Assembly: GCA_043738235.1 (NCBI GenBank)
Contig: JAYSZC010000383.1
Coordinates: 1-36,040, forward strand
Direction of reading: 5' to 3'
Source: Lewinellaceae bacterium
GTDB taxonomy: Bacteria; Bacteroidota; Bacteroidia; Chitinophagales; Saprospiraceae
Length of the DNA: 36,040 nucleotides
The position numbers and the translations under genes are program-made. Under the pieces are notes generated by a model. That model did no database searches. It saw only the letters and a program-made list of their open reading frames with translations, and was not told the DNA's origin. This document shows positions 15,169-33,441 of this stretch, one piece after another; the stretch's first letter is position 1, and each line of letters starts with the position of its first letter.

Positions 15169-15201
15169 AGACCTATAAGGTTTTTGAAACCTTATAGGTC
15201 T
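15169..15201 (-). terminator. 15-bp perfect-stem hairpin in the GH78-like / GH106-like intergenic region
   Basis: agacctataaggttt-ttg-aaaccttataggtct, read directly. It lies downstream of the 15343 stop on the minus strand. No U-tract follows. Confidence 0.45.
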
Positions 15202-15223
15202 CGTTCCACGGAAATTGAGCATC

Positions 15224-15319
15224 GAGGTGACATCTGCGAGGCACGAGCAGGTGTCATCTCAATGCGGAAATGTTGTGGTTTCGAGATGTCACTTGCTCGT
15301 ACCTCGCAAATGACACCTC
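15224..15319. repeat. long imperfect inverted repeat (37-nt arms, 32/37 complementary, 22-nt spacer) carrying four GGTGWCATCT-like boxes
   Basis: Arm 1 is gaggtgacatctgcgaggcacgagcaggtgtcatctc (15224-15260). Arm 2 is gagatgtcacttgctcgtacctcgcaaatgacacctc (15283-15319). I compared them base by base. Confidence 0.85.
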
Positions 15320-15342
15320 TTCACTGGCCATAGGTACTCGCA

Positions 15343-19107: not shown

Positions 19108-19115
19108 TACATTTG
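19108..19115 (+). promoter_or_regulatory. candidate -7 promoter box TACATTTG (TAnnTTTG) for the susC operon
   Basis: Exact consensus match in the AT-rich divergent region, with a TTG-containing stretch about 20 nt upstream (19085-19090). It would give a 5' UTR of about 150-180 nt. Confidence 0.3.
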
Positions 19116-19284: not shown

Positions 19285-19318
19285 CTTGACGTTAGAACGT
19301 CCTTGACGTTAGAACGTC
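19285..19318 (+). repeat. perfect tandem duplication of a 17-bp unit (CTTGACGTTAGAACGTC x2) overlapping the susC start
   Basis: Copies at 19285-19301 and 19302-19318 are identical. Each contains the palindrome GACGTT-AG-AACGTC. Confidence 0.95.
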
Positions 19319-22300
19319 AAAAACCTAAACAGGGCTGGCCAAGGCTTTTATTATTGGCCTCGATGTTGTTCATTTCCCAACTCAGCTTTGCACAAACAAC
19401 CTCCATCACCGGAAAATTGCTTGATCAGGAGGCAAATCCATTGATCGGCGCTACGGTGATTGTGAAGGGCACGGCCAGCGGGACAGTGTCAGACACCGAA
19501 GGAAAATTCCGGCTAAGCGTTCCTCCGGGCGGAAGCACTTTAGTGGTTTCCTACACCGGGTACGCGACGCAGGAAATCCCAATTGACGGTCGCACGGAAT
19601 TCAACGTTACCCTCGTTGAAGGCATTTCCTCTGTCAATGAGATTGTGGTTGTTGCGTATGGCGTCCAAAAGAAAGCGACCCTGACCGGCGCCGTAGTGGC
19701 TATTGGAGGGAGGGACTTGACCAAGTCACCCGCTGTGGATATGTCCAATTCGCTTGCCGGCCGACTGGCGGGCGTAGTAGTGGTTCAACCCAGTGGCGAG
19801 CCGGGCTACGACGGCGCCACCATCAACATTCGAGGCATCAATACATTGGGCAACAGCAGCCCGCTGATCGTCATTGACGGTTTCCCTGACCGCGACGGTG
19901 GCTTGGGCCGTTTAAGCCCGCAAGACGTCGAATCCATTTCGGTCTTGAAAGACGCTTCGGCGGCCATCTACGGCGCGCGCGCTGCCAACGGCGCTATCTT
20001 GATCACGACCAAGCGAGGCAAAACGGGCAAGCCTACGATCTCCTACAATTTCAACCAGGGCTGGTCGCAACCTACCGTGGTGCCTGAAATGTCGAATTCT
20101 GTGGAGTATGCTAACATTATGAACGAGCTGCCCATTTACCGGTCCATTCCGGTCGGCGAATGGACTGCGGCTTCAAACAGCATCAAAAGCACAGGTACCT
20201 ACGACTCGCCCACGGCGGGCGTGGCCACGCTGAACGCCAACTACAGCCCGGAAGCGGTGACCAAATACGGCGATGGGTCCGATCCGTGGGGTCACACAGA
20301 CACTGACTGGTTTGGCGATGCGTTCAAAAAGTGGGCGCCGCAGAACCGTCACAACATCCAAATGTCAGGCGGGAGCGAAAACATTCGGTACCTGACCTCG
20401 CTGGGCTATGTTTTCCAGGACGCCATTTATAAAAACTCCGCTACTTTCTACAAACAGTACAATGCACGAGTCAACCTCGATGCCAAGGTGAACAACTACA
20501 TCAGTGCCAACATCGGCGCTATGTTGCGCCGGGAAAACCGCAACTTCCCCACCGAATCTGCCGGCGCCATTTTCCGCATGCTTATGCGCGGTCGGCCCAC
20601 CGAACCGGAAGTATGGCCCAACGGCAAACCCGGTCCCGACATCGAAAACGGCCAAAATCCTTATGTCATCACAACAAACGCCACGGGCTACACCCAAGAC
20701 CCCACCGACTACCAACAGGTCAACGGCGGGGTGGAGATTACTAACCCTTGGATCAGTGGGCTGAAGCTGACCCTCAGCGCAGCTATTGACCGCGCCAATC
20801 GCAGCACCAAAACGTTCCAAACACCCTGGGAACTGTACTACTGGGACCGCACTTCCTATGAAGCCGACGGCACGACGCCCCTGCTGGTCGGTGCGGTGCG
20901 CTCCAACTTCACGGATCCCCGTCTCTCCCAGTCCTACGCTTCCAGGCTTAACACTAACCTGACTTCCTTGCTCAGCTACGACCGCACAGTGGGCGACCAT
21001 GCGATCAACATTCTGGCCGGCGTCACGAAAGAACAGTTTAAAGGCGATTTCTTTTTTGCTTACCGTCGCAACTTCATTTCCACGGCGGTTGACCAGCTGT
21101 TTGCCGGTGGTTCCGAACAGCAAAACACCGGAGGGTCTGCCTTCGAGAGAGCTCGTTTGGGATATTACGGCCGTTTTCAGTACAATTTCAAGGAAAAATA
21201 CCTGGCTGAATTCATTTGGCGGTACGATGGCTCCTACATTTTCCCGAAAGCCGGCCGTTTCGGTTTCTTCCCCGGCTTGTTGCTCGGTTGGAATGTTTCG
21301 AGTGAAAGGTTCATGGAAAACGTCAAATTCATTAACTTCTTGAAACTGCGCGCCTCCTACGGGCAGATGGGCAATGACCAGGTGTTCTACAATGGACAGT
21401 TGCAGGAGTACGCTTATCTGTCCACGTATGGGTTTGGTGCTTATCCCATCAATGGCGTGGTGGTCAGTACGCTGCGGGAAGTTGTGCTGGCAAACCCCGA
21501 CTTTACCTGGGAACGCGCCAACAACCTCAACTTTGGCCTGGATGCTACCCTTTTTAATAGCAGAATTGACGTGAACTTTGAGGTTTTCAAAAACCGGCGC
21601 GATCAGATTTTGATCCAGAAAACAGGTTCCACGCCGGCTTCTTCGGGCATCAGTTCGCTGCTGCCGCCGGTCAACGCAGGCAAAGTAGACAACCAAGGCT
21701 TTGAGTTCGCTTTGGGCTACAATTCCAGTACCAGCAGCAAGTTGCGCTTCCGGGCCACTGTGAATGGTGGTTATGCCCAAAACAAAGTTGTGTTCATGGA
21801 CGAAGTTCCCGGTGCGCCCGATTATCAACGCCAGGAAGGCAAGCCCATTGGCGCCTTTTTGATCTATGAAGCCGACGGCGCCTTTTTGGACCAGGCCGCC
21901 GTGGAGGCAAACACCATTGATTATAGTGGCGTCACGACCCAACTGCTGCCCGGCGACCTGAAGATCAAGGATTACAACGGCGATGGCAAAATTGATGCCG
22001 ATGACCAGGTGCGCCTCAGTAGCAACGCTTTCCCTACTTTCAACTTCGGCGCAACTTTGACTCTCTCTTATGGCGATTTCGACTTTTCGGCCCTCTTCCA
22101 GGGCGCCACGGGCGCGGACATTCGCATTTCCACGGAATCCGGCGATATCGGGAACTTCCTGAAATATAGCCATGATAACCGTTGGTCAATTGCCAATCCA
22201 AGCAGCACGGATCCCCGTTTGGCAAGTCGCGGCGACACCTATTTTACAGGTGGCAACTTCGGTAACAACACGTATTTCCTCTTTAGTAAAGACTACGTTC

Positions 22301-22506
22301 GGTTGAAAAACATCGAGCTAGGCTACAGCATTCCCCGCAGCGTTTTGGACAAATATAAATTCTCTGGCCTGCGCTTTTACGTCAATGCTCTTAATTTGCT
22401 AACATTTGCTGCAAACGATATTTTTGATCCGGAATCTACGGCTGGAAATGGTGTCTATTATCCTCAATCGCGGGTTATTAACACGGGCATCAGCTTAACT
22501 TTCTAA
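19303..22506 (+). CDS. susC: SusC/RagA-family TonB-dependent outer-membrane transporter
   Basis: 1067-aa ORF. It has a signal peptide (…ISQLSFA-Q), a carboxypeptidase-regulatory-like N-terminal domain (ITGKLLDQEANPLIGATVIVKGT…), a plug with VVVAYGVQKKATLTGAV, and a C-terminal barrel ending …GISLTF. The start codon is uncertain: TTG at 19303, see the finding on the 17-bp duplication. Confidence 0.9.
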   Translation: MTLERQKPKQGWPRLLLLASMLFISQLSFAQTTSITGKLLDQEANPLIGATVIVKGTASGTVSDTEGKFRLSVPPGGSTLVVSYTGYATQEIPIDGRTEFNVTLVEGISSVNEIVVVAYGVQKKATLTGAVVAIGGRDLTKSPAVDMSNSLAGRLAGVVVVQPSGEPGYDGATINIRGINTLGNSSPLIVIDGFPDRDGGLGRLSPQDVESISVLKDASAAIYGARAANGAILITTKRGKTGKPTISYNFNQGWSQPTVVPEMSNSVEYANIMNELPIYRSIPVGEWTAASNSIKSTGTYDSPTAGVATLNANYSPEAVTKYGDGSDPWGHTDTDWFGDAFKKWAPQNRHNIQMSGGSENIRYLTSLGYVFQDAIYKNSATFYKQYNARVNLDAKVNNYISANIGAMLRRENRNFPTESAGAIFRMLMRGRPTEPEVWPNGKPGPDIENGQNPYVITTNATGYTQDPTDYQQVNGGVEITNPWISGLKLTLSAAIDRANRSTKTFQTPWELYYWDRTSYEADGTTPLLVGAVRSNFTDPRLSQSYASRLNTNLTSLLSYDRTVGDHAINILAGVTKEQFKGDFFFAYRRNFISTAVDQLFAGGSEQQNTGGSAFERARLGYYGRFQYNFKEKYLAEFIWRYDGSYIFPKAGRFGFFPGLLLGWNVSSERFMENVKFINFLKLRASYGQMGNDQVFYNGQLQEYAYLSTYGFGAYPINGVVVSTLREVVLANPDFTWERANNLNFGLDATLFNSRIDVNFEVFKNRRDQILIQKTGSTPASSGISSLLPPVNAGKVDNQGFEFALGYNSSTSSKLRFRATVNGGYAQNKVVFMDEVPGAPDYQRQEGKPIGAFLIYEADGAFLDQAAVEANTIDYSGVTTQLLPGDLKIKDYNGDGKIDADDQVRLSSNAFPTFNFGATLTLSYGDFDFSALFQGATGADIRISTESGDIGNFLKYSHDNRWSIANPSSTDPRLASRGDTYFTGGNFGNNTYFLFSKDYVRLKNIELGYSIPRSVLDKYKFSGLRFYVNALNLLTFAANDIFDPESTAGNGVYYPQSRVINTGISLTF

Positions 22507-22523
22507 ACGTTAAACTCAAAACA

Positions 22524-24401
22524 ATGAAAAAGCTTAGTGCATTTTCGCTATTTTTATTGGCACTTGTCTCGATCTACATATCCTGCAAACCGGATTTCTT
22601 AGACACGGAGCCACTCGACAAAATTTCCAGTGAAGCAACCTGGAAGGATGGTCCCCTTTCGCAGGCTTTCATCTTCAATGTCTATTCATTCCTCGGTTAT
22701 GGAGGCTTTGAAGAACAGGCCCTGGCGTCCATTACCGATGAAGCCATGTTCACCCATGCCGGACGGAATATCGCGCCCTTCAACGAGGGAGCTGAAACGC
22801 CATCTAACCTGGCTTGGTTCAGTTCGACCTACAAATGGGACGATATGTACCTGGCTATTCGGCAAGCCAACATAGCATTGGAAAACTTGCCCACCTCAAC
22901 TTTCCAGGATGATCAACTGCGCGAGCGGCTTACAGGAGAAGCCTACTTTCTACGTGCCTACTACAACCAGCAACTCCTTCGTTACTATGGTGGCGTTCCC
23001 ATCATCACCAAATCTTATGGTTTGAACGAAGACTATACCATTGAGCGCAACACATATGAAGCATGTGTCAACGCCATTGTTGCCGACCTGGATCAGGCCG
23101 CTCAACTGTTGGACGGCAAATCGGAAATACCCGGTCGTGCCTCCAAGATTGCAGCCTTGGCCCTCAAATCAAGGGTTTTGCTGTACGCTGCCAGCGATCT
23201 CCATGATGGCCCCACGGCCAAATCCAACTCCAGCACATTGTCTTCTTTCGGCAATATTGAATTAGTGGCTTACAATGGCGGAGACCGTACTGCACGCTGG
23301 AGAGCAGCCAAAGAAGCAGCCAAAGCCGTACTGGATGCCTCTACCGGCTACAAATTGGACCTGGGCGCCCCTGCAACTTTAGAGGAAGGCAAAAACAACC
23401 ATATTGCCATTTCAATGGGCGGCAAAAGTAAAGCTGCCGATCCAAGTGCAGCGGTGGAGCTGATTTTCCAGCGCACACACACTGCTCTGTATACAGCCGA
23501 GGACAACTGGCCCCTGGGCGGTATCCACTATGGTATCAACAACGGACCGAACGGATACCACAACTGGGCCGGCAATACGCCGATCCAACAATTGGTAGAC
23601 GACTATGAAATGATGGACGGCACAAAATTCGATTGGAACAATCCTGCACAGAAAGCCGATCCATACCTCAACCGCGACCCTCGTTTTTATGCCACGATTC
23701 TTTTCGACGGTGCTGATTGGAAGCCACGCCCGGCCGATGTAGCTGCGCTCGATCCGGCGAATGAGATACAAACGGGCTACTATGACAATGGTAGCGGGGG
23801 TACGATTAATGGTATCGATACCCGTGAATCTGCCGTCGAAAACTGGAACGGCAGCCGTACACACTATTATGTCCGTAAATATATTGACCCGGATCCGGCT
23901 TTGCCCGACAACCAGTCCAGCGCCCAGGTAGTTCCGTGGCCCTTCATTCGCTATACCGAAGTGATTTTGAACTACGCCGAAGCCTGTATCGAATTGGGTG
24001 AAGAAAGCGAAGCACTTACATGGCTGAACAAGTTGCGTTTCCGCGCCGGTATGCCCGCCATTACCGAAAGCGGCGCGGCGCTGAAACAACGTTACCGCAA
24101 CGAACGCCGGGTAGAATTGGCCTATGAAGAGCACCGCTACCACGATGCCCGTCGCTGGATGATCGCACCTGCTACCCTCGGACGGGGTATTCAGGCCATC
24201 AATATCCAGGCAACGCTCAAACCGGGGGCCACCCCTGCCACGCCTTATCGCCACGATAAGAGCCTCTACGACTACAACTATACGGTGGTGAACAACACCG
24301 AGAACGAGAACCGCAGCTGGAACGACAAAATGTACTTCCGCCCCATTAGTCGTGACGAGATCAACCGGAACGCCAAGTTGGTGCAGAATCCGGGTTATTA
24401 G
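22524..24401 (+). CDS. susD: SusD/RagB-family nutrient-binding outer-membrane lipoprotein
   Basis: 625-aa ORF starting 17 nt after susC. It has a lipoprotein-type leader ending …IYISC. Typical SusD blocks are LRAYYNQQLLRYYGGVP, NRDPRFYATI and ERRVELAYEEHRYHDARRW. Confidence 0.9.
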   Translation: MKKLSAFSLFLLALVSIYISCKPDFLDTEPLDKISSEATWKDGPLSQAFIFNVYSFLGYGGFEEQALASITDEAMFTHAGRNIAPFNEGAETPSNLAWFSSTYKWDDMYLAIRQANIALENLPTSTFQDDQLRERLTGEAYFLRAYYNQQLLRYYGGVPIITKSYGLNEDYTIERNTYEACVNAIVADLDQAAQLLDGKSEIPGRASKIAALALKSRVLLYAASDLHDGPTAKSNSSTLSSFGNIELVAYNGGDRTARWRAAKEAAKAVLDASTGYKLDLGAPATLEEGKNNHIAISMGGKSKAADPSAAVELIFQRTHTALYTAEDNWPLGGIHYGINNGPNGYHNWAGNTPIQQLVDDYEMMDGTKFDWNNPAQKADPYLNRDPRFYATILFDGADWKPRPADVAALDPANEIQTGYYDNGSGGTINGIDTRESAVENWNGSRTHYYVRKYIDPDPALPDNQSSAQVVPWPFIRYTEVILNYAEACIELGEESEALTWLNKLRFRAGMPAITESGAALKQRYRNERRVELAYEEHRYHDARRWMIAPATLGRGIQAINIQATLKPGATPATPYRHDKSLYDYNYTVVNNTENENRSWNDKMYFRPISRDEINRNAKLVQNPGY

Positions 24402-24413
24402 TTTTAGGGGAGT

Positions 24414-24476
24414 GGACTAACTGCATGACAATACTATATTTTTTGCAAAAATTTAGTATTGTCATGCAGTTAGTCC
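24414..24476 (+). terminator. very long hairpin directly after susD (23-bp perfect stem, extendable to about 29 bp with one mismatch, 3-nt loop)
   Basis: ggactaactgcatgacaatacta … tagtattgtcatgcagttagtcc. The inner attttt/aaaaat also pairs. It lies 13 nt after the susD stop and about 70 nt before the next start. Confidence 0.6.
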
Positions 24477-24548
24477 ATTTACAGGAAGTGCCAACGTAGA
24501 GTCGGTTGCGCATAAGTACATTTCGTTGCTCGTTGATATGTTTGCTAT

Positions 24549-27500
24549 ATGAAAAAACGGACGCTCGGCGAGCGAAATCTTTTCCTTTCGGTTACCTTCC
24601 TCTCGTGCCTGCTTTGGCAATGTGGCAGGGATAAAACCCAGGAAACGGTAAGCCCTCCTCCTCCTGCCAATACCCTCTTTTCCCTGCTCTCCCCGGCAGA
24701 GACCGGTGTCAATTTCCAGAACACCCTCACGGAAGGCCCGAACACCAATATTTTGGTTTATGAATATTTTTACAACGGCGGCGGTGTCGCGGCGGGTGAT
24801 TTTAATGGCGACGGGCTGATTGACCTGTACTTTACCGCCAACATGGAAACCAACCGCTTCTACCTCAACCAGGGCGGTATGAAATTCAAGGACGTGACCG
24901 AACTGTCCGGCGCTGCCGGCCGGCCGGGCCCCTGGAAAACCGGGGTCAGCCTCGTGGACATCAACGGCGACCAGAAACTGGACCTCTACGTGTCGTACTC
25001 CGGTATGTTGCCCGAACCGAAACGCGCCAACCAACTCTTCATCAACCTGGGCAACGACGCCAACGGCGTACCGCGTTTTGAAGACCAGGCCGCCGCTTAC
25101 GGGCTGGCCAGCACAGGCTTCAGCAACCAGGCCTATTTTTTCGACTACGACCGGGACGGCGACCTGGATATGCTGCTGCTCAACCACAGCCCCAAGTCGT
25201 TGCCCATGCTCACCGAGACGGGCAACGCCGAAATGCTGAAACAGGACGACCCTAACCAGGGACTGCGCCTTTTCCGCCAGGACAAAGGCCATTTTACCGA
25301 TGTTACCCAGGCTGCCGGCATTTCTGGTTCGCCCCTTAGCTATGGCCTAGGTCTCGGTATTGCGGACGTGAACCGGGATGACTGGCCGGATTTTTACGTG
25401 TCGAACGATTACGCCGTGCCCGATTATCTTTATATCAACAATAAAAACGGCACTTTCACCGACCGATTGGGCCAAAGCCTCGGCCACAACAGCCAATTCT
25501 CGATGGGCAATGACGTCGCCGACGTGAACAACGACGGCTGGGCGGACATCGTGACCCTCGATATGTTGCCAGAGGACAACCGGCGGCAAAAACTGCTGCT
25601 GGCCCCCGACAACTACGCCAAATACGACCTCAACGTGCGCAGCAGCTTCCATCACCAGTTCATGCGCAATATGCTCCAGCTCAACAACGGCAACGGCACA
25701 TTCAGCGAAATCGGCCAATTGGCCGGTATCTCTAATACGGATTGGAGTTGGGCGGCCCTCCTGGCCGATTACGACAACGACGGCTGGAAAGACCTTTTCG
25801 TCACCAATGGCTATTATCGCGACTATACCAACCTGGATTTTATCCATTACATGGACGATGTGGTGCAGGCGAAAGGCCGGTTGCAACGCGAAGATGTGTT
25901 GGAGATCATCCAGCACATGCCCGCTTCCGATGTGTCCAACTACCTTTTCGCCAATCAGGATGGGCAGTCGTTCGTTAATAAATCCCAAGATTGGGGCGTG
26001 GCGCGCCCCTCGAACAGCAACGGCGCCGCTTATGCCGATCTGGACAATGACGGCGACCTGGATTTGGTGGTCAACAACGTGAACCAGCCCGCCTTCGTCT
26101 ATCGCAACGAAGCACAGCGGCAACCTAACCGTCATTATTTGCAAATACAATTGCAAGAGACGGGCGGAAACACGCAAGGCATCGGGGCCGGCGTGACCAT
26201 TTTCGCTCAAGGCCGGCAACAAACCCTGGAACAACAATGCGCGCGCGGCTACCTATCGGCCGTTTCGCCACTGCTGCACTTTGGTTTGGGTCAAGCCACC
26301 CACGTGGATTCTTTGGTGGTCACCTGGCCCAATGGTCGGCAACAAATACTGACCAATGTCCCCGTTGACCAAAAGTTGATCCTGCAAGCAAAAGACGCCG
26401 GTCGGCCAGCCCAAAAGTTGCCGGTACAAAGCCCTGTTTTCCGCAAAACAACGCCTCCTTTCCAATTTCAACAGGTCACCTCCACCGTACGAGACTTCGA
26501 CCGACAAAATTTGCTGATTTGCGAACTGTCTTTTACCGGCCCTTGCTTAGTCAAAGGTGATGTGAATGGCGACAAACGGGAAGATATATTGGTGGGAGGC
26601 GCAGCAGGCCAGGCCCTGACTTTATACTTACAAGAATCCGGCGGGCGCTTCAGCAATAAGGCCATACCTGCTTTTGAGGCCGATAAAGCTTGCACAGATG
26701 CCGATTTAGCACTGTTTGATGCCAATGGAGATGGTTTCCCCGACCTCTACGCCGCCAGCGGCGGGTATAATCAGTTGACCGACCAAGACCCGCTCCTGCT
26801 TGACCGGCTCTACCTCAATGATGGGAAAGGCCATTTTACGCGCGACGCGGAGGCTTTACCCGACTTTCGCGCCAGCAAAGGTTGTGTAGCGGTAGGCGAT
26901 TGCAACCGCGACGGACACCCCGACCTGTTTGTCGGCGGAAGAGTAGTGCCGGGACGGTACCCTGAAGCCCCCGGTAGCGCGCTGTTGATCAATGACGGGA
27001 AAGGCCATTTTTCCGACCAAACAAATGCATGGGCGCCGCAACTCCGAAATATGAGCATGGTCACCGATGCTGTTTGGGTGGACCTTGATCAAGATGGGCA
27101 ACAAGAATTGGTTATTGTGGGCGAGTGGCTACCTATTTCCGTCTATGCCGTGCAGGGGGGTAAACTGGAAGACCGAACCCTCCAATATTTCGGAAACTCC
27201 TACCGGGGCTGGTGGAATACCTTAGAAGTGGCAGACCTTAACCATGATCAAAAACCTGATTTGATAGCCGGGAACATGGGTCTGAACACGCAATTTAAAG
27301 TATCGGACACCGAACCAGCAGAACTTTACTACCGTGACTTCGATGGAAATGGTTCGGTTGATCCTATTTTTTGTTTTTTCATTCAGGGAAAAAGTTATCC
27401 CTATGTAACCCGTGACGAACTGGGTAAACAATTGCCAAGAATGCGCGCCCGCTTCACTTCCTACGAAAGTTATGCCGACGCCACCTTGAAAGACATGTTC

Positions 27501-27914
27501 TCTGATGAGGATATCCAAAAAGCCGGACATTTGACAGCAACCTATATGGCGACTGCCCTTTTTATCAATCAAGGCGGACAATCGCTGCGCTTGCAAACGC
27601 TGCCGGCAGAGGCCCAATATTCGCCTGTTTGCGCCATTGGTATAATTGATGCCAATCAGGACAGTCACCCGGATTTGCTTTTATGCGGTAATAACAGCCA
27701 TGCAAAACTGCGCCTGGGTAAGTTTGATGCCAATTACGGTATGCTGCTGACTGGCGACGGGAAGGGAGGTTTTCAGTACGTGCCCCAGACACAATCGGGT
27801 CTGAAATTGAAAGGAGATGTACGGAGTGTGTTGTCTATTGGCAAAACGGTGTTGTTTGGCATCAACCAAAGCGCTCTTGTTTCTTATCAACTTAATAACC
27901 ACAATGGGTTATGA
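24549..27914 (+). CDS. FG-GAP/VCBS-repeat protein with central UnbV/ASPIC domain (CRTAC1-like), probable lipoprotein
   Basis: 1121-aa ORF with the leader …FLSCLLWQCG. Repeated Ca-binding-like FG-GAP/VCBS motifs are present: DFNGDGLIDLY, DYDRDGDLDML, DVNNDGWADIV, DYDNDGWKDLF, DLDNDGDLDLV, DANGDGFPDLY. The UnbV/ASPIC block is GIGAGVTIFAQGRQQTLEQQCARGYLSAVSPLLHFGLGQATHVDSLVVTWPNG. Confidence 0.8.
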   Translation: MKKRTLGERNLFLSVTFLSCLLWQCGRDKTQETVSPPPPANTLFSLLSPAETGVNFQNTLTEGPNTNILVYEYFYNGGGVAAGDFNGDGLIDLYFTANMETNRFYLNQGGMKFKDVTELSGAAGRPGPWKTGVSLVDINGDQKLDLYVSYSGMLPEPKRANQLFINLGNDANGVPRFEDQAAAYGLASTGFSNQAYFFDYDRDGDLDMLLLNHSPKSLPMLTETGNAEMLKQDDPNQGLRLFRQDKGHFTDVTQAAGISGSPLSYGLGLGIADVNRDDWPDFYVSNDYAVPDYLYINNKNGTFTDRLGQSLGHNSQFSMGNDVADVNNDGWADIVTLDMLPEDNRRQKLLLAPDNYAKYDLNVRSSFHHQFMRNMLQLNNGNGTFSEIGQLAGISNTDWSWAALLADYDNDGWKDLFVTNGYYRDYTNLDFIHYMDDVVQAKGRLQREDVLEIIQHMPASDVSNYLFANQDGQSFVNKSQDWGVARPSNSNGAAYADLDNDGDLDLVVNNVNQPAFVYRNEAQRQPNRHYLQIQLQETGGNTQGIGAGVTIFAQGRQQTLEQQCARGYLSAVSPLLHFGLGQATHVDSLVVTWPNGRQQILTNVPVDQKLILQAKDAGRPAQKLPVQSPVFRKTTPPFQFQQVTSTVRDFDRQNLLICELSFTGPCLVKGDVNGDKREDILVGGAAGQALTLYLQESGGRFSNKAIPAFEADKACTDADLALFDANGDGFPDLYAASGGYNQLTDQDPLLLDRLYLNDGKGHFTRDAEALPDFRASKGCVAVGDCNRDGHPDLFVGGRVVPGRYPEAPGSALLINDGKGHFSDQTNAWAPQLRNMSMVTDAVWVDLDQDGQQELVIVGEWLPISVYAVQGGKLEDRTLQYFGNSYRGWWNTLEVADLNHDQKPDLIAGNMGLNTQFKVSDTEPAELYYRDFDGNGSVDPIFCFFIQGKSYPYVTRDELGKQLPRMRARFTSYESYADATLKDMFSDEDIQKAGHLTATYMATALFINQGGQSLRLQTLPAEAQYSPVCAIGIIDANQDSHPDLLLCGNNSHAKLRLGKFDANYGMLLTGDGKGGFQYVPQTQSGLKLKGDVRSVLSIGKTVLFGINQSALVSYQLNNHNGL

Positions 27915-29248
27915 AAAGGCCCTTCTATGTACTCATATTGCTTGTTTTAAGCATCGCAGGCTGTCGCCGGCTCAATCCTCCCCCCACAGAAGCAGCAGTC
28001 GCCGGCGCCTGGGCAGACATGACGCTTCGCATTACCCGATACACGCCTGCCAATTCGCCTACCTTCGCGTCGAGGGCTTTGGGCTATATTGGACTTACGA
28101 TGTACGAATCCATTGTACACGGATACCCGGAATATCAAAGTATGGCCGCGCAATTGAACGGATTGGATAGTTTGCCTTGGCCGCAAGCAGGTGTCTCATA
28201 TGACTGGGAACTGGCTTTAAACGCAGGTCAGGCTTATATCCTCAAAAATATTTACCAACAAACTTCCGACGCCAACAAACATAGTATTGATTCTTTAGAA
28301 GCCCTGTTTTTTGATTATTTGTCAAGAAAAGAGACTCAAAAAGAAACAGTGGCACGCTCGGTCGCTTATGGTCGGGGAGTAGCTGCTGCCATTTTTGAAT
28401 GGTCTAAAACAGATGGCGGTCACCGTGGTTATTTGAAAAACTTCGACAAGTCTTTCGAACCTCCCAAACATCCGGGTGGCTGGCGCCCTCCGATGTATGC
28501 GCAATCTTTTAGCCACCATCCCCTGCACCCGCATTGGGGTCGGAATCGGACATTCCTCCGGCAAGACGCCCTATTGGCCACGCCGGCAATGATACCCTGC
28601 GATACCACTCAAAACTCGGCCTACTACCGGCAGTTTAAGCTTGTATATGAAAAGAAGCTGACTCAGGAAGAAAAAGAAATCGCCCTTTGGTGGGCCGACG
28701 ACCCCAGCGAGACCTTTACACCGCCCGGTCATTCCTATTATCTGGCAACTATTGTATTGCGAAAAACCAACCCGCCATTGATCTTATGGGCAGAAACGTA
28801 TGCCCGGACTGGAATAGCGGTCGCTGATGCCTTCATTAATTGCTGGAAATGGAAGTACTACTACTTTACGGAAAGGCCCAATACCTTCATCCCCCACTTT
28901 ATTGACCAGGAATGGGAGTCTTTTTGGCCCGACCCACCTTTCCCGGCTTTCCCATCTGGTCACGCCATTCAGTCGGCAGCGGCAGCTATTGTGTTAACCG
29001 ATTTGTTCGGCGAGCCTTTCTCCTTTACTGACAGTGCACATGTGGGTCGGCCTCCCGACGAACTCCGCCAGGTGGAATTCAAGGCGCGTTCGTACAAGTC
29101 TTTTTGGGAAGTAGCCGTCGAAACCGCCAACTCCCGTTTTTACGGCGGCATTCACACGCCTCAGGACAACCATGCCGGCCAGGAAGCCGGAGTGCTCATT
29201 GGGAAAAATGTAAATGCGCTGCGGTGGCGAAAGAAAACACAGGGATAG
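27911..29248 (+). CDS. vanadium-haloperoxidase-like / PAP2-superfamily lipoprotein
   Basis: 445-aa ORF with the lipobox leader MKRPFYVLILLVLSIAGC. The tripartite PAP2/VHPO signature is intact: KWKYYYFTERP (K…RP), PSGHA, SRFYGGIHTPQD (SR…H…D). Its start overlaps the upstream stop as ATGA (27911-27914). Confidence 0.75.
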   Translation: MKRPFYVLILLVLSIAGCRRLNPPPTEAAVAGAWADMTLRITRYTPANSPTFASRALGYIGLTMYESIVHGYPEYQSMAAQLNGLDSLPWPQAGVSYDWELALNAGQAYILKNIYQQTSDANKHSIDSLEALFFDYLSRKETQKETVARSVAYGRGVAAAIFEWSKTDGGHRGYLKNFDKSFEPPKHPGGWRPPMYAQSFSHHPLHPHWGRNRTFLRQDALLATPAMIPCDTTQNSAYYRQFKLVYEKKLTQEEKEIALWWADDPSETFTPPGHSYYLATIVLRKTNPPLILWAETYARTGIAVADAFINCWKWKYYYFTERPNTFIPHFIDQEWESFWPDPPFPAFPSGHAIQSAAAAIVLTDLFGEPFSFTDSAHVGRPPDELRQVEFKARSYKSFWEVAVETANSRFYGGIHTPQDNHAGQEAGVLIGKNVNALRWRKKTQG

Positions 29249-29370
29249 AAGGAGTTGTGTAAAAATCTTGATTTTGATTTTTGACACAATCCATAAAAGC
29301 ACCTAAACGAAGTATAATCTCAAAATTCGAACTTCGAGTGCCGGTTTTGCTTCGTTACTGAAAATGTAAA

Positions 29371-31119
29371 ATGATCCGAGCGTTTAAAAACACTTTTTTA
29401 TCTGCTTTCAATAAGGCAATATGCATTGTCATGCTGCTTCAAAGCCATCCGGTTATTGGGCAAACACCGCCGGCCGCTACCCCTTTTGTGGATATCACCG
29501 AAGCAGCAGGTATCAAGCACCAATTCGCCGTTTATGAAGGAATGTTTGGCGGCGGTATCTGTGTTTTTGACCTGAATAAAGACGGGTTCGAAGATGTGTT
29601 TATCACGGGCGGGATGAACGACGATCAACTTTACCTCAATCAGGGCAACGGCACATTTCGCAATGCTTATGAAGGGTCGGGGCTGGAATTGAGCAAAAGG
29701 TTCGTCACCCAAGGCGCCGTCGGAGCCGATGTCAACCGCGACGGCTGGGTTGATCTGTTCGTGACCACCCTGACTTCCAGGGATACTTTTCCGCAAATAC
29801 CACGCGCACGTAACCTGCTGTTTCTCAACAACGGCAACGGCACTTTTCGGGATGCCACCGATGAATACGGGCTGACCAACTTGTATTCCTTTAGCACAGG
29901 CGCCGGTTTTAGCGATTTCAATGCCGACGGTTGGCCCGACCTGTATGTAGGTAATTACTTTGTCGGCTACGAGGGTAAATTATCATACCTCAGTGACGCG
30001 ACCATTGCCGGGGCAAACCAAACGGCCAAAGGTTATTTGCTGCGCAACGAAATGGGCCGGTCTTTCAAAGATGTATATGCTCTTTACGACCTCAAGCACC
30101 GCGGATTCGGTTTTGGCGGGGTATTCACCGATTACGACAATGACGGGGATCAGGACTTGATTGTCAACCACGATTTTGGTTACAAGGCTGTGCCGAGTTA
30201 CATGTTTGAAAACAAATACCCCTGGCGCTCTTTTAAGGACGTGAGCAAGGCAACCGAAATGAATCTGAAAATTAACGCCATGGGCGCCGCAGTGGGCGAT
30301 TATAACGAAGACGGGTGGATGGATTATTATGTCACCAATATCCGCTTCAATCGCTTCATGGTCAGCCAGGGACCGGGTAAACCCTTCGTAGATAAATCCA
30401 AAGAACTGGGTATGCGCTATGTATCCATTAGTTGGGGAGCCAATTTTGCGGATTTTGACCAGGACGGCGACCTGGATTTGTATGTATCCAATGGAGACCT
30501 CAACCCCTACTGCGTACCCATGGCAGATTTTTATTTTGAAAATGAAAAGGGTGTTTTTATGGAAAAAGCCCGCGCTATGGGTTTAAACGATTACGGTATC
30601 GGGCGCGGCTCTGTAGCATTCGACATCGAAAATGACGGTGATCTCGACATATTGGTGGTCAATCAGAAGCCCATGTCCGACTACCCGGTACCCTCAACGA
30701 CCCGGCTTTATCGCAACGACGCGGCCAAAGGAAATTGGCTGAAAGTTGCACTGTCCGGCACGGAGGCTGAAAGCCATGGCCTCGGTTCGCGCATCATGGT
30801 TGTGGCCGGTGGGCATCACTTCATTCGGGAAATTGACGGCGGAAGTTCAAGCCACCTCTCACAAAACTCTACCATCGCCCATTTTGGACTGGGGAATGCC
30901 GGCATCGTGGATTCTGTCATGGTGACCTGGACGGGCGGCAAACTGCAAATCCTGACAAACCAATCTGTGAATACACTACTCACCGTTATAGAGGCAAAAG
31001 GCACACGTTCCTGGTCATGGGTTTATGTCTTGGTCAGTTTGGGCGTGTTGCTTGGTTTCTATGTTTGGTGGAGAAGAAAAAAGGCAGCCTGTATTTCAGC
31101 ACAAAACCGATACCTTTAG
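29371..31119 (+). CDS. FG-GAP/VCBS-repeat + UnbV/ASPIC protein (CRTAC1-like) with a C-terminal membrane anchor
   Basis: 582-aa ORF with an N-terminal signal. FG-GAP-like motifs are DLNKDGFEDVF, DVNRDGWVDLF, DFNADGWPDLY, DYDNDGDQDLI, DYNEDGWMDYY, DFDQDGDLDLY and DIENDGDLDIL. The ASPIC block is GLGSRIMVVAGGHHFIREIDGGSSSHLSQNSTIAHFGLG…VTWTGG. The C-terminal hydrophobic helix WSWVYVLVSLGVLLGFYVWW is followed by RRKK. Confidence 0.8.
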   Translation: MIRAFKNTFLSAFNKAICIVMLLQSHPVIGQTPPAATPFVDITEAAGIKHQFAVYEGMFGGGICVFDLNKDGFEDVFITGGMNDDQLYLNQGNGTFRNAYEGSGLELSKRFVTQGAVGADVNRDGWVDLFVTTLTSRDTFPQIPRARNLLFLNNGNGTFRDATDEYGLTNLYSFSTGAGFSDFNADGWPDLYVGNYFVGYEGKLSYLSDATIAGANQTAKGYLLRNEMGRSFKDVYALYDLKHRGFGFGGVFTDYDNDGDQDLIVNHDFGYKAVPSYMFENKYPWRSFKDVSKATEMNLKINAMGAAVGDYNEDGWMDYYVTNIRFNRFMVSQGPGKPFVDKSKELGMRYVSISWGANFADFDQDGDLDLYVSNGDLNPYCVPMADFYFENEKGVFMEKARAMGLNDYGIGRGSVAFDIENDGDLDILVVNQKPMSDYPVPSTTRLYRNDAAKGNWLKVALSGTEAESHGLGSRIMVVAGGHHFIREIDGGSSSHLSQNSTIAHFGLGNAGIVDSVMVTWTGGKLQILTNQSVNTLLTVIEAKGTRSWSWVYVLVSLGVLLGFYVWWRRKKAACISAQNRYL

Positions 31120-31145: not shown

Positions 31146-32036
31146 ATGGAAGTATTCCGCAAATATTTTAGCGAATCCCAACTGAAAGACCTGGAAGAAT
31201 CGGGTCCCAACTGGGGCGTAAATGTGCATACCGTCGGGCACTACGTACATCCTCCCCGGCGGGCGTACCCCGACCCGGAGCATCCATCCACGTATGTGTT
31301 TCAGTGGGAAAAAGGGCGACGCCTGCAGGAATTTCAAATGGTTTACATCGCCAGCGGAAGAGGCATTTACGAAGGCGACGGCCTGGAGCCGATTGCCATT
31401 GAGGCCGGCACGCTGATGATGCATTTCCCGGAAGTATGGCACCGCTACAAACCCTTGCCGGAAACTGGGTGGGAGGAATTCTGGGTGGGTTTTGACGGGC
31501 ATTTTGCCGAATACCTGATGGGACAGGAATGCTTCGACCCTCAAAAACCTCTCATCAGCATCGGGTTTAACGCAGAGTTCCTCAACATTTTTCTACGCCT
31601 GATCGACACGGTGAAATACGAAGGTGTGGCTTTCCGCCAGATTTCATCCTGCCTCGTGATCCAGATGCTCGGACTGGTGTACGCTTCGGCTTTGATGCAC
31701 GGCAAAACCAAACTCCGGCAGGAACAAATCATCCAGGCCGTCCGGTTCAAAATACACGAAAACTGGGAACGCAACCTCGATTTCGAAGCCATTGCGGCGG
31801 AGCAAAATGTGAGTTACGAATGGTTCCGGAAAACCTTCAAGGATGTGCTGGGCACCTCGCCCGGACAATACCTGCTCCACCTGAAAATTGAAAAAACCGG
31901 CCAGATGCTGCGGGAAACATCGCTGACCATTGCGGAAATAGCCGACAAAGCGGGTTTTGAATCGGAGTTTTACTTTTCCCGGATTTTTAAAAAGAAAATG
32001 GGGCAGACGCCGAGCGCATTCCGGAAAAAAGGCTGA
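31146..32036 (+). CDS. AraC-family transcriptional regulator (cupin-like sensor + HTH), candidate rhamnose/locus regulator
   Basis: 296-aa ORF with an N-terminal cupin-like half. The C-terminal dual HTH includes NVSYEWFRKTFKDVLGTSPGQYLL and IAEIADKAGFESEFYFSRIFKKKMGQTPSAFRK. Rhamnose regulons in Bacteroidetes are known to use AraC-type regulators, but orthology was not tested. Confidence 0.8.
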   Translation: MEVFRKYFSESQLKDLEESGPNWGVNVHTVGHYVHPPRRAYPDPEHPSTYVFQWEKGRRLQEFQMVYIASGRGIYEGDGLEPIAIEAGTLMMHFPEVWHRYKPLPETGWEEFWVGFDGHFAEYLMGQECFDPQKPLISIGFNAEFLNIFLRLIDTVKYEGVAFRQISSCLVIQMLGLVYASALMHGKTKLRQEQIIQAVRFKIHENWERNLDFEAIAAEQNVSYEWFRKTFKDVLGTSPGQYLLHLKIEKTGQMLRETSLTIAEIADKAGFESEFYFSRIFKKKMGQTPSAFRKKG

Positions 32037-32223: not shown

Positions 32224-33441
32224 ATGAATACCGAAAAAATTTACAAGCTACTCGATCAATCCAACTTGCTGCTTGCAAACACCAGAACAACGCACGACCG
32301 ATTTCTGATGCGGGACTTGCCCTGGGATTGGCGTTTGCTCGGTATAAAAGGCGCAAGGGGTGTTGGTAAAACCACCTTACTGCTTCAAAGGCTGCAATTG
32401 GAGCAATCGGCCGGGCAAAAAGCAGTTTATCTGACACTCGACGATGTGCATTTCGGCACACAAGGGTTGAGAGAAACGGTCGAGGCATTGCTGCAAATTG
32501 GTTACAAGCGATTTTTTCTGGACGAAGTACACAAATACCCCGGGTGGGCGCAACACCTTAAAAATCTGTACGATTTTCATCCTGATATCCAGATTGTGTT
32601 TAGCGGTTCGTCAATTGTCGAATTGGGCCGACAATTTGTGGATCTAAGCCGACGGGCCATTATGCACGAACTGCCTGGCCTTTCATTCCGGGAGTACCTG
32701 ATTTTCCGGGAAGTGCCGGAGGTTCCGGAGGCTTTTACACTGGAAGATATTTTCAAGCACCACCGGGAAATTGCTAGCGGGATTTCTCAAAAAATAAAAC
32801 CGTTCGAATTTTTTGCCGACTATCTCAAATCGGGCTATTACCCTTTTTTCCTCGAAAATCCGGCGCTTATTTCGGTCCGTTTGCGGCAGTTAGTGCGCCT
32901 TGTACTCGACGTTGATTTGGCTGGTTCAGAAGAAGGCGGCAGGATTTATCAAGTGCATAAATTGGGGCAATTGCTGCAAATTATTGCCGAATCCGTGCCA
33001 TTCAAACCCAATCTCCAAAATCTCGCCCGTTCACTCGAAATAGATCGCGACACCGTCAGCCGTTATCTGCGGCACCTGCACGACGCACGACTCATTGCCT
33101 TGCTATATGCCGAGTTGCAAGGTGTTTTTTCACTTCAAAAACCGGAGAAAATCTACCTGCAAAATACCGCCATCGCCCATGCTCTTATGCCTGTCGGGCA
33201 ACCCGATCCCGGAAGCCTGCGGGAAACGTTTTTCCTCAGTCAAGTGTCGGCAAAGCATCAGGTCAACTATCCTGCTTCCGGGGATTTTTTGATTGACCAG
33301 AAGTACACCGTCGAGGTTGGTGGAAAAGGCAAAAAACTCAGGCAAATCGCAGAAACACCCAACAGTTTTCTTGCACTTGATGATTTGCCCATTGGATTTG
33401 AACGGCAGGTGCCTTTGTGGCTGTTTGGGTTTTTGTACTAA
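32224..33441 (+). CDS. AAA+ superfamily ATPase, COG1373-like (second paralogue in the window)
   Basis: 405-aa ORF. It has Walker A GARGVGKTT, Walker B-like FFLDEVH, a wHTH-like segment (RDTVSRYLRHLHDARLI), and a C-terminal GDFLID…YTVEVGGKGK motif. The 10-mer ATTTTTGCGG is repeated upstream at 32180-32189 and 32213-32222. Confidence 0.75.
   Translation: MNTEKIYKLLDQSNLLLANTRTTHDRFLMRDLPWDWRLLGIKGARGVGKTTLLLQRLQLEQSAGQKAVYLTLDDVHFGTQGLRETVEALLQIGYKRFFLDEVHKYPGWAQHLKNLYDFHPDIQIVFSGSSIVELGRQFVDLSRRAIMHELPGLSFREYLIFREVPEVPEAFTLEDIFKHHREIASGISQKIKPFEFFADYLKSGYYPFFLENPALISVRLRQLVRLVLDVDLAGSEEGGRIYQVHKLGQLLQIIAESVPFKPNLQNLARSLEIDRDTVSRYLRHLHDARLIALLYAELQGVFSLQKPEKIYLQNTAIAHALMPVGQPDPGSLRETFFLSQVSAKHQVNYPASGDFLIDQKYTVEVGGKGKKLRQIAETPNSFLALDDLPIGFERQVPLWLFGFLY

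Follow-up and report, generated by a model that had tools for sequence, protein, structure and literature searches.

Organization of the locus

The window analysed here is a stretch of 36,040 nt from a Lewinellaceae bacterium (contig JAYSZC010000383.1), in which a SusC/SusD pair is followed by four further genes in the same orientation:

19303-22506, + strand: susC, SusC/RagA-type TonB-dependent outer-membrane transporter (1067 aa)
22524-24401, + strand: susD, SusD/RagB-type lipoprotein lid (625 aa)
24549-27914, + strand: ASPIC_L, lipoprotein with FG-GAP propellers and UnbV_ASPIC (1121 aa)
27911-29248, + strand: VHPO, two-domain VHPO-like PAP2 lipoprotein (445 aa)
29371-31119, + strand: ASPIC_S, CRTAC1-family protein (582 aa)
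31146-32036, + strand: AraC-family regulator with cupin-type AraC_binding and HTH domains (Pfam, NCBIfam)

The positions of the genes, their domains and signal peptides, an ATGA overlap and a C-terminal anchor had been described in an earlier note made from the sequence, and all were found as noted in the ORF map, the Pfam matches and the sequence itself. The araC gene, which the text of that note names although it falls just beyond the end coordinate given there for the locus, lies 26 nt downstream of ASPIC_S in the same direction and is a candidate local regulator of the cassette in the window.

SusC was recognized by TIGR04056 (884 bits, cut-off 368) and contains Plug and CarboxypepD_reg domains but no STN domain. 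SusD matched SusD_RagB (E=5.5e-57) and SusD-like_3 (E=1.6e-28) in Pfam, and its PDB matches were uncharacterised SusD homologues from structural genomics. No GH, PL or CE domain was detected in the three cargo proteins by Pfam, NCBIfam, PDB sequence and profile searches or fold search, which bears out the claim of a SusC/SusD locus without a recognisable CAZyme. Domain matches likewise agreed with a cargo of two FG-GAP/ASPIC proteins and a VHPO-like lipoprotein, and predicted sorting signals supported the export of all three.

The region upstream of susC and its start codon

18617-19302, no strand: divergent intergenic region, 686 nt (ORF map and sequence)
19285-19318, + strand: perfect 17-nt tandem duplication (CTTGACGTTAGAACGTC twice) at the 5' end of susC

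The intergenic region separates susC from a xylose-isomerase-like TIM-barrel gene on the minus strand, the head of a rhamnosidase operon, and it probably holds the promoters of both transcription units. A single match to the Bacteroidota-type -7 box (TACATTTG) was located at 19108-19115 on the + strand, for a motif whose frequency across the window is at chance level, and no Rfam family matched the region. Each unit of the 17-nt duplication contains the palindrome GACGT-N4-ACGTC. Reading of the sequence revealed that, with one copy of the unit, an ATG at 19272 is in frame with susC (MDESYLTLERQKPKQGW...), whereas with two copies this frame stops and susC can start only at TTG 19303. The duplication may reduce or abolish normal susC translation in the window, which counts against the function proposed below for the cassette.

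Domains and fold of the ASPIC proteins

In ASPIC_L, Pfam detected FG-GAP_3 in 10 stretches (E=2.6e-75) and UnbV_ASPIC (E=4.7e-23). Residues ~40-615 make up a CRTAC1-like unit of a 7-bladed FG-GAP propeller and an UnbV_ASPIC sandwich, residues ~650-1121 make up a second 7-bladed FG-GAP propeller, and the protein contains 14 DxDxDG-type loops. Its N-terminal half is 27% identical to ASPIC_S, and the top Foldseek match of its AF2 model (pLDDT 77.7) was mouse CRTAC1 (9ETN, E=3e-26, TMt 0.73). The lipoprotein Cys25 was invariant among 32 homologues and is followed in the orthologues by acidic or Lys-Asp-rich stretches; from these signals, ASPIC_L is probably exposed on the surface.

ASPIC_S (FG-GAP_3, E=1.6e-33; UnbV_ASPIC, E=5.3e-16; Pfam) consists of a signal peptide cleaved before Gln (VIG|QT), a 7-bladed FG-GAP propeller, the UnbV_ASPIC domain and a C-terminal transmembrane helix, with a hydropathy peak at 547-567 and a basic RRKK tail. 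The position of this anchor was kept in 32 of 32 aligned homologues, and the protein is predicted to sit on the periplasmic side of the inner membrane, anchored there by this helix. Its AF2 model (pLDDT 84.5, pTM 0.83) also matched 9ETN (E=1.5e-30, TMq 0.71), followed by two fungal lectins that bind GlcNAc, PVL and AAL2; the list also included integrins and Bap1, a matrix protein of Vibrio. These fold matches offer a precedent for ligand binding by such propellers.

Both proteins thus resemble the CRTAC1/ASPIC-UnbV (enediyne E4) family, in which a 7-bladed FG-GAP/VCBS Ca-loop propeller is followed by an UnbV_ASPIC beta-sandwich (Foldseek TM to 9ETN 0.71-0.75), and JGI labels ASPIC proteins 'enediyne biosynthesis protein E4'. 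However, they are only about 20% identical to CRTAC1, ASPIC_S has in addition the C-terminal membrane anchor, ASPIC_L a lipid anchor and a further propeller, and their context is a SusCD transporter instead of a polyketide cluster or the animal extracellular matrix. No biochemical activity could be verified for any member of the CRTAC1/UnbV family, and the structure search placed the ASPIC proteins in no characterised enzyme family.

As the closest fold relatives (CRTAC1, integrin alpha and Bap1) are propellers that bind proteins or matrix, the ASPIC proteins might be adhesins or scaffolds, with SusCD serving signalling or micronutrient uptake, in a manner analogous to the cofactor TonB transporters that are capped by a propeller lipoprotein. 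Trans-envelope signalling by ECF/FecR with an STN-bearing SusC in some carriers, and the lack of conserved catabolic genes nearby, would suit such a role. We nevertheless regard it as very unlikely. The sequences are very highly conserved, and the many invariant polar residues of ASPIC_S outside the Ca loops (H50, E56, R145, H267, D268, K272, R412, H495 and H504) suggest a defined site for catalysis or a ligand more than they do a generic adhesin; adhesion would be senseless on the periplasmic side that this protein is predicted to face, and ASPIC_L is translationally coupled to an enzyme with an intact active site. In addition, the LacI, AraC and NrtR regulators suggest a metabolite effector.

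The VHPO-like PAP2 enzyme

VHPO scored 46.8 bits with PAP2 (cut-off 27.2) and 22.2 bits with VCPO_N, below the cut-off of 29.3 (Pfam). Its lipobox is IAGC, with Cys18 invariant among 21 homologues; as the orthologues differ in the residues that follow this Cys, the sorting signal is ambiguous between the surface and the periplasm. The start codon overlaps the stop codon of ASPIC_L (ATGA, read from the sequence). A relocated ASPIC_L in Hydrobacter and in one further locus again precedes an overlapping second VHPO paralogue, so that the ASPIC-VHPO partnership is tight.

Residues 47-429 of VHPO aligned with 56-438 of the vanadium iodoperoxidase Zg-VIPO1 of Zobellia galactanivorans (4CIT/4USZ; match to 4CIT, E=1e-47), which also comes from the Bacteroidota and has identical vanadate/phosphate-binding residues. 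The motifs K315-X6-R322-P, P348-S-G-H351 and S408-R-X5-H415-X3-D419 were invariant among the 21 homologues. Judged by these PAP2/VHPO catalytic residues, the active site appears intact and would fit phosphatase and peroxidase chemistry alike. Unlike Zg-VIPO1, VHPO is a lipoprotein inside a transporter operon, retains the HX3D in its third motif and has a 12-residue deletion, where Zg-VIPO1 carries CNPYVSVTRGHL..., in a loop that forms part of the VIPO active site. In 2014, Fournier and colleagues reportedly placed Tyr263 of Zg-VIPO1 in this loop. In some cassettes there is also a second paralogue of VIPO-like type, which shares 28% identity with the enzyme of the window.

VHPO could therefore be a true vanadium haloperoxidase that works with its ASPIC/UnbV partners in hypohalite chemistry on an imported or surface-bound substrate, such as phenolic, humic or unsaturated compounds, or that detoxifies or handles halogenated matter. 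The full-length alignment with a characterised iodoperoxidase, the invariant vanadate-binding residues and a two-domain architecture of the VHPO type, not of the small acid phosphatase type, speak for this possibility, as does the second paralogue after ASPIC_L in Hydrobacter, which keeps the VIPO-type loop. The environmental carriers, which we take to be aerobes, would fit the need for H2O2. The naming of the ASPIC proteins after enediyne protein E4/UnbV by JGI points the same way; in 2024, Gui and colleagues reportedly found that an enediyne PKS cassette including E4 produces iodinated polyynes. Still, we consider true haloperoxidase chemistry unlikely, because the window-type enzyme is without the 12-residue loop and keeps the full phosphatase-type third motif (SR-X5-H-X3-D), and the best 80 loci showed no conserved H2O2-generating oxidase, either within the cassette or next to it. 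Iodide is scarce in the freshwater, soil or sludge habitats of most carriers, the regulators that accompany the cassette belong to types that respond to sugars or small metabolites, and periplasmic production of hypohalite would be hazardous.

Conservation of the cassette

Relatives of the PAP2 enzyme were encoded in 363 species genomes, and in the best 80 loci susC-susD-ASPIC_L-VHPO-ASPIC_S recurred as a self-contained cassette. Because these loci were collected by way of their VHPO gene and none falls below 60% identity, the statistics cover one orthologous clade and not the whole family; their genes were called by a crude ORF procedure. The gene order of the window was found in 30 of the 38 loci with complete flanks and an adjacent SusCD pair in 36, so that gene order, for which the earlier note had named a lack of conservation as refuting, proved to be strongly conserved. 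Median identities to the window proteins were 71% for SusD, the most conserved, 68% for SusC, 64% for ASPIC_S, 63% for VHPO and 60% for ASPIC_L, whereas other SusC/D pairs within the same loci were only 25-59% identical to the window pair. The carriers span Saprospiraceae, Chitinophagaceae, Cytophagales and Flavobacteriaceae; all 80 listed are environmental Bacteroidota, presumably aerobes, and none is named as gut Bacteroidales. The recurrence of the five genes together in dozens of other genomes is far beyond chance.

Neighbouring genes and the rhamnosidase operon

Clustering of all the flanking ORFs of the best 80 loci revealed no other conserved gene around the cassette and, in particular, no conserved inner-membrane transporter or catabolic enzyme. 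The sole recurrent neighbours were regulators (LacI in 13 loci, FecR in 6 and a NUDIX/NrtR type in 4), and their type changes between lineages, from AraC in the window to LacI, ECF/FecR or NrtR/AraR-like elsewhere. The LacI neighbours scored best to RbsR/CytR/PurR, below the cut-off; proteins of the LacI, NrtR/AraR-like and AraC types typically sense sugars or small metabolites. Where ECF/FecR is present, SusC has an STN domain or an N-terminal extension.

The divergent operon of the window encodes the xylose-isomerase-like TIM barrel, GH78-like, GH106 and GH78 proteins, a ThuA-GSDH-cytochrome c-CBM6 protein and RhaT. An aldolase/SDR fusion protein (Aldolase_II and adh_short domains) lies further along, and presumably resembles the rhamnulose-1-phosphate aldolase fusions of rhamnose pathways. 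It had been proposed that cassette and operon act together on a rhamnose-rich anionic glycan, which the Ca-propellers would bind or cleave while the PAP2 enzyme removed a substituent. In favour of this proposal are the 686-nt region common to both, the fusion protein, the AraC-type regulator after ASPIC_S and the presence of the PL11 rhamnogalacturonan lyase YesX among the fold matches, as YesW and YesX are also Ca-dependent beta-propellers. However, the YesX match was poor (TMq 0.31, rmsd 18 A, 12% identity) and absent from the PDB sequence-profile search, reducing the PL11 analogy to a generic propeller likeness. No GH78, GH106 or RhaT homologue (E<1e-8) and no AraC homologue adjoined the cassette in any of the best 80 loci, including the closest relatives at 70-84% identity, and the CAZymes found nearby were sporadic and of unrelated families (GH2, GH95, GH97 and GH20). 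The rhamnose-glycan idea therefore lacks support and is judged highly improbable; the adjacency in the window genome appears incidental, and there may be a local, lineage-specific coupling in this genome alone.

Comparison with known SusCD systems

As in Sus-like PULs, genes for a SusC-like TonB-dependent transporter and a SusD-like lipoprotein lie side by side, exported proteins encoded in the same direction follow, among them a probable surface lipoprotein, and a dedicated regulator accompanies them. The cassette differs in its cargo, which is made up of two propellers of the CRTAC1 family and the VHPO-like PAP2 enzyme and has no domain of a glycoside hydrolase, lyase or esterase, in the unusual conservation of SusC and SusD across families (medians of 68% and 71%) and in a regulator type that varies by lineage. 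A SusCD-like pair with non-CAZyme cargo is also found in the PusCD loci of Flavobacterium, which are switched on when phosphate is depleted and carry phosphomono- and phosphodiesterases in place of CAZymes (Lidbury et al. 2021, PMC8115612). In contrast, the regulators beside the cassette are not of the Pho type, and the terms ASPIC, VCBS, PAP2 and haloperoxidase are absent from that paper. In the literature searched, no paper on the cassette was found, nor any experimentally defined function for bacterial ASPIC proteins or for this gene combination, in agreement with the earlier note.

Proposed function of the cassette

With a probability of about 0.5, the five genes are a self-standing, vertically conserved cassette by which aerobic environmental Bacteroidota take up and process one specific extracellular organic substrate, for which the most plausible guess is a sugar-containing, possibly phosphorylated compound. 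As no substrate, inner-membrane transporter or catabolic enzyme is conserved with the cassette, its nutrient role is deduced from SusCD alone. In the following scheme, locations are taken from sorting signals and the chemistry is conjectural. ASPIC_L would capture and perhaps cut the substrate at the surface beside the SusD lid, and SusC would import it with TonB energy. In the periplasm, the substrate would meet the lipoprotein VHPO, for which a phosphoester or another oxyanion-bearing group would be a likelier target than halide oxidation, and ASPIC_S, whose C-terminal helix would fix it to the inner membrane. Against a phosphatase, the nearest characterised PAP2 relative is a genuine iodoperoxidase. 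A small product would then enter the cytoplasm and be sensed by a regulator recruited by each lineage (AraC in the window; elsewhere LacI, NrtR/AraR-like or ECF/FecR). The rhamnosidase operon alongside would be an independent locus that merely shares the intergenic region in the window genome.

An additional feature was detected within the 122-nt gap between VHPO and ASPIC_S:

29251-29292, + strand: AT-rich stem-loop directly past the VHPO stop codon

This element is without a U tract, and its predicted RNA fold has a free energy of -15.2 kcal/mol (z = -3.0 versus shuffles).

A CAZyme-free SusC/SusD cassette

A Sus-like locus is in itself a known arrangement; what is new here is an uncharacterised, strongly conserved cargo that is free of CAZymes. 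The ORF listing and profile searches bore out, gene by gene, the description in the earlier note, in which a susC/susD pair is followed in the same direction by two FG-GAP/ASPIC proteins with a haloperoxidase-like lipoprotein between them, and by a regulator. The genes are the following:

19303-22506, + strand, SusC/RagA transporter (TIGR04056, 884 bits)
22524-24401, + strand, SusD lipoprotein
24549-27914, + strand, ASPIC_L, 1121 aa, FG-GAP/VCBS plus UnbV_ASPIC
27911-29248, + strand, PAP2 protein (VHPO), 445 aa
29371-31119, + strand, ASPIC_S, 582 aa, FG-GAP plus UnbV_ASPIC
31146-32036, + strand, AraC regulator

The susC-like (TIGR04056) and susD-like genes lie side by side on one strand with 17 nt between them, and an ATGA stop/start overlap, read in the sequence, joins ASPIC_L and the PAP2 gene. 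Searches with Pfam and NCBIfam revealed no GH, PL or CE domain in the cargo proteins, and no CAZyme family was found among the fold-search matches of the cargo propeller proteins, so that the initial view of a SusC/SusD locus without a recognisable CAZyme stood by all three approaches. The adjacent susC/susD pair is shared with Sus-like polysaccharide utilisation loci, whereas the carbohydrate-active enzymes that canonically co-localise with it there are absent here.

In the window ORF map, an opposite-strand operon lies across a 686-nt intergenic region from the cassette, and its products are a xylose-isomerase-like TIM protein, a GH78-like protein, a GH106, a GH78, a 1250-aa multidomain protein and RhaT. 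The 1250-aa protein (4742-8494, minus strand) combines ThuA, a PQQ-type glucose/sorbosone dehydrogenase (GSDH) propeller, PKD, cytochrome c and CBM6, and is a putative enzyme for the oxidative modification of sugars, with its own electron acceptor and a carbohydrate-binding module in the same polypeptide. Next to RhaT lies a 717-aa protein in which a class II aldolase is fused to a short-chain dehydrogenase (34-2187, minus strand). Aldolase/SDR fusions of a similar kind are known in non-canonical rhamnose pathways, and the presence of this one beside RhaT supports the view that the window's left half is a locus for rhamnose utilisation. Two AAA_14/DUF4143 ATPase genes (2259-3425 and 32224-33441, both + strand) bracket the rhamnose locus and the cassette. 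A mobile island flanked by these genes was considered and rejected, as the pair is merely 24% identical and the GC content is even throughout the region.

Conservation of the cassette among Bacteroidota

When 185,579 species, each represented by a single genome, were scanned with a degenerate pattern, 363 genomes proved to encode a PAP2-enzyme relative. The 80 best of these loci were taken with 10-kb flanks, and their ORFs, for which the gene calls are crude, were compared to all window proteins. The 80 loci were chosen through the VHPO gene and, being all at least 60% identical, represent one orthologous clade. In these best 80 loci, the four other cassette genes accompany the PAP2 enzyme almost wherever the contig is long enough. 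SusC and SusD were adjacent in 36 of the 38 loci with full flanks, and the exact gene order of the window was found in 30 of them, which confirms this order as a conserved one; ASPIC_L is relocated in the other full-flank loci, where it lies divergent and upstream or else behind ASPIC_S.

The carriers among the best 80 loci belong to Saprospiraceae/Lewinellaceae, Chitinophagaceae, Cytophagales (Spirosomataceae, Emticicia, Arcicella, Chryseolinea and Cyclobacteriaceae) and Flavobacteriaceae (Maribacter and Eudoraea), the closest relatives being Saprospirales MAGs with 81-89% identity. Bacteroidota of several families, from soil, fresh water, sludge and the sea, thus keep the cassette almost unaltered. 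The transporter is more strongly conserved than usual for SusC/D: median identities to the window proteins were 71% for SusD, 68% for SusC, 64% for ASPIC_S, 63% for VHPO and 60% for ASPIC_L, and other SusC/D pairs in the same loci were 25-59% identical to the window pair. Complex organic matter enters Bacteroidota mainly through SusCD systems, the substrate of which can normally be predicted from the cargo. A CAZyme-free cassette that persists nearly intact across families, together with an unusually conserved transporter, argues for one defined, widespread substrate beyond the reach of current annotation.

In Hydrobacter penzbergensis (locus L083, 6921-14640) the order is ECF, FecR, SusC(STN), SusD, VHPO, ASPIC_S, ASPIC_L and a second VHPO, the VHPO ahead of ASPIC_S being of the window type and the second one VIPO-like. 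The second VHPO gene overlaps the ASPIC_L stop, and its product is 28% identical to the window enzyme. The same adjacency of ASPIC_L to this second type of VHPO (VHPO_B) was present in another locus (L049, 1-609). Taken together with the ATGA overlap in the window, the Hydrobacter overlap and this adjacency point to a functional, perhaps physical, partnership of ASPIC_L with a VHPO-like protein.

An 819-aa protein with PAP2, FG-GAP and ASPIC domains (P0139, on an ENA contig of 352 kb) was considered as a Rosetta-stone fusion of VHPO and ASPIC_S and was rejected. It consists of a truncated VHPO and a complete ASPIC_S that still includes an internal ASPIC_S signal peptide, and is therefore most likely a read-through or gene-calling artefact.

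Genomic neighbours and the proposed link to rhamnose

The neighbours of the cassette were surveyed by all-against-all clustering of the flanking ORFs and by Pfam searches on the genes immediately next to it (62 downstream, 38 upstream). The clustering detected no further conserved gene beside the cassette in the best 80 loci. The only recurrent neighbours were regulators of changing type, namely LacI (13 loci), FecR plus an ECF sigma factor (6 loci) and NUDIX/NrtR-AraR-like proteins (4 loci); in the loci with FecR and ECF, SusC bears an STN domain or is extended at its N-terminus. CAZymes near the cassette occurred sporadically and came from unrelated families (three cases of GH2, two of GH95, and GH97 and GH20). 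When the best 80 loci were searched with every window protein, none had a GH78, GH106, RhaT or AraC homologue beside the cassette, so that the rhamnosidase-operon link proposed in the earlier note fails as a conserved feature. Therefore, with flanks that hold only changing regulators and sporadic CAZymes, and no rhamnose genes, the cassette is an autonomous unit, and only in this genome does it adjoin the rhamnosidase operon.

Substrate clues from the regulators and from SusD were few. Against NCBIfam, the top-scoring models were RbsR, CytR and PurR for the LacI proteins and NrtR for the NUDIX protein, all far below the curated cut-offs, which is at most a weak hint at pentose- or nucleoside-like effectors. 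Among solved structures, SusD matched uncharacterised structural-genomics homologues only. Two unrelated lineages have a polyphosphate kinase gene no more than a few kb from the cassette, PPK1 in Emticicia and relatives (4 loci; for example 14174-16468 in locus L043) and PPK2 in Neolewinella (locus L084, 17595-18362); this gives a weak hint of a phosphorus connection, which may be due to chance.

Predicted localisation of the cargo proteins

The lipoprotein cysteine of ASPIC_L, C25, is invariant in 32 homologues, and in the orthologues it is followed by Asp-, Glu- and Lys-Asp-rich residues. Going by the lipoprotein export signal of Bacteroidota, such an acidic or Lys-Asp pattern denotes exposure at the surface. 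In the PAP2 protein the lipobox is canonical (IAGC) and its cysteine, Cys18, invariant; the residues beyond this cysteine vary, and so do not fix the face of the outer membrane on which the protein resides. In ASPIC_S, a signal peptide with predicted cleavage before Gln and a hydrophobic helix (547-567) followed by RRKK were detected, the helix and basic tail being at the same position in 32 of 32 aligned homologues. A PEP-CTERM or GlyGly-CTERM-type signal was rejected for this helix: no conserved motif precedes it in the 32 homologues, which makes a plain membrane anchor the simpler reading. From these sequence features, ASPIC_S is predicted to reside in the periplasm, held at the inner membrane by the helix.

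Structure of the ASPIC propeller proteins

In both ASPIC_L and ASPIC_S, an FG-GAP/VCBS propeller is followed by UnbV_ASPIC, with both Pfam models above their gathering scores. DxDxDG-type loops number 7 in ASPIC_S and 2 x 7 in ASPIC_L. Among the polar residues of ASPIC_S, H50, E56, R145, H267, D268, K272, R412, H495 and H504 are invariant. The ASPIC_S model (pLDDT 84.5, pTM 0.83) gave mouse CRTAC1 (9ETN) as its top Foldseek match (E=1.5e-30, TMq 0.71). Far behind were the GlcNAc-binding fungal lectins PVL and AAL2, integrin alpha chains and aldos-2-ulose dehydratase (TMq 0.44), and a profile of 32 ASPIC_S homologues matched only CRTAC1 and integrins in the PDB. The ASPIC_L model (pLDDT 77.7) consists of a CRTAC1-like unit, 27% identical to ASPIC_S, and a second propeller; it also matched 9ETN (E=3e-26) and otherwise only generic multi-propeller proteins. 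Homologues are labelled 'enediyne biosynthesis protein E4' by JGI and 'CRTAC1 family protein' or 'VCBS repeat-containing protein' by NCBI.

As judged from the predicted models, both proteins fall in no characterised enzyme family, in agreement with the initial expectation, their best match being CRTAC1. The analogy to PL11 lyases drawn at the same time did not hold: compared with YesW/YesX, ASPIC_S has no close structural likeness (YesX, TMq 0.31, rmsd 18 Å) and no sequence-profile match.

The VHPO-like PAP2 protein

The PAP2 protein matched the Zobellia galactanivorans vanadium iodoperoxidase Zg-VIPO1 (4CIT/4USZ) over nearly its full length (residues 47-429, E=1e-47). The two-domain helical VHPO architecture is present, with a precomputed annotation of PF22778 (VCPO_2nd), and VCPO_N scored below its cut-off (22.2 vs 29.3 bits). 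The format of class A PAP2 phosphatases, a single domain of ~230 aa, does not apply to this protein, which has 445 aa and an extra N-terminal helical domain, and no hydrophobic segment besides the signal peptide was detected that would indicate an integral membrane topology.

In 21 homologues, the vanadate-binding set K315, R322, S349-G350-H351, R409 and H415 is invariant, as are all three PAP2 acid phosphatase motifs (K315-X6-R322-P, P-S349-G-H351 and S-R409-X5-H415-X3-D419). With the three motifs invariant, the active site is intact; its residues are common to vanadium haloperoxidases and acid phosphatases and therefore do not discriminate between the two chemistries. In the alignment to 4CIT, the window enzyme has a 12-residue gap at the second-sphere loop CNPYVSVTRGHL (CNPY...) of Zg-VIPO1, which the second Hydrobacter paralogue, in contrast, keeps. 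This loop reportedly carries an active-site tyrosine, Tyr263.

Our judgement leans to phosphoester or oxyanion chemistry over halide oxidation, on four grounds: the PAP2 enzyme lacks the VIPO loop, it keeps HX3D, no source of peroxide is conserved alongside it, and most carriers come from iodide-poor habitats. Oxidation of a halide by the VHPO-like protein appears unlikely to us, though it is made more intriguing by an enediyne cassette that includes the UnbV homologue E4 and is said to yield iodinated polyynes. To our knowledge, this E4-containing cassette makes iodinated intermediates without any known halogenase.

A proposed import-and-processing system

The best-supported reading is that of a dedicated SusCD import-and-processing system, in which ASPIC_L at the surface, the SusCD pore, the VHPO-like lipoprotein and ASPIC_S tethered to the inner membrane would act together. 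The localisation steps are inferred from the sorting signals, and the putative nutrient role from SusCD and the metabolite-type regulators. A bolder, rather improbable proposal is that the ASPIC/UnbV propellers are a new enzyme class or an obligate enzyme partner and, jointly with VHPO-like PAP2 proteins, perform non-hydrolytic chemistry, possibly dependent on both halide and peroxide, on a SusCD-imported substrate. If true, characterisation of the cassette would assign a first biochemical function to the CRTAC1/UnbV superfamily as a whole, with human CRTAC1 and enediyne E4 among its members.

Full-text literature searches yielded no paper on the cassette or on the function of bacterial ASPIC/CRTAC1 proteins, and no verifiable activity for any bacterial CRTAC1/UnbV protein. 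The original interpretation was upheld as to the unusual nature of the cargo, the conservation of the gene order and the lack of a characterised function in the literature, and was not supported as to the link to rhamnose. The nearest concept is that of the CAZyme-free phosphate utilisation systems of Flavobacterium, for which none of the cassette cargo families is mentioned (PMC8115612). These PusCD systems co-localise with phosphoesterases and respond to phosphate depletion; the cassette has a PAP2-type enzyme, and its regulators are of the LacI, AraC, NrtR and ECF types.

The cargo families, CRTAC1/UnbV and VHPO-like proteins outside natural-product pathways, are unsolved problems in their own right. 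Direct tests are possible in several carriers that are in culture, among them Fibrella aquatilis, Emticicia, Arcicella aurantiaca, Flavilitoribacter nigricans, Hydrobacter penzbergensis and Neolewinella lacunae; they might reveal a new family of enzymes or class of environmental substrate, or a new way in which phosphorus or halogens are cycled.

The susC start and non-coding elements

No Rfam family was detected at threshold as a riboswitch or leader in the 686-nt upstream region, and promoter and terminator scans gave motif counts at chance level. A perfect 17-nt tandem duplication (CTTGACGTTAGAACGTC, two copies) lies at 19285-19318, exactly at the susC start, and each unit holds the palindrome GACGT-N4-ACGTC. 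With a single copy, ATG 19272 would be in frame with susC; with two copies this frame stops and TTG 19303 is the sole start. ATG 19272 is likely the ancestral susC start, and as the duplication parts it from the reading frame, SusC may be poorly translated in this genome. Possible explanations of the duplication are a genuine mutation, inactivating or variable, a repeat that acts like an operator, and an error of the assembly.

Immediately downstream of the VHPO stop codon, in the 122-nt gap ahead of ASPIC_S, an AT-rich hairpin without a U tract was found at 29251-29292 (-15.2 kcal/mol, z = -3.0), which may be an intra-operon RNA processing or attenuation element.
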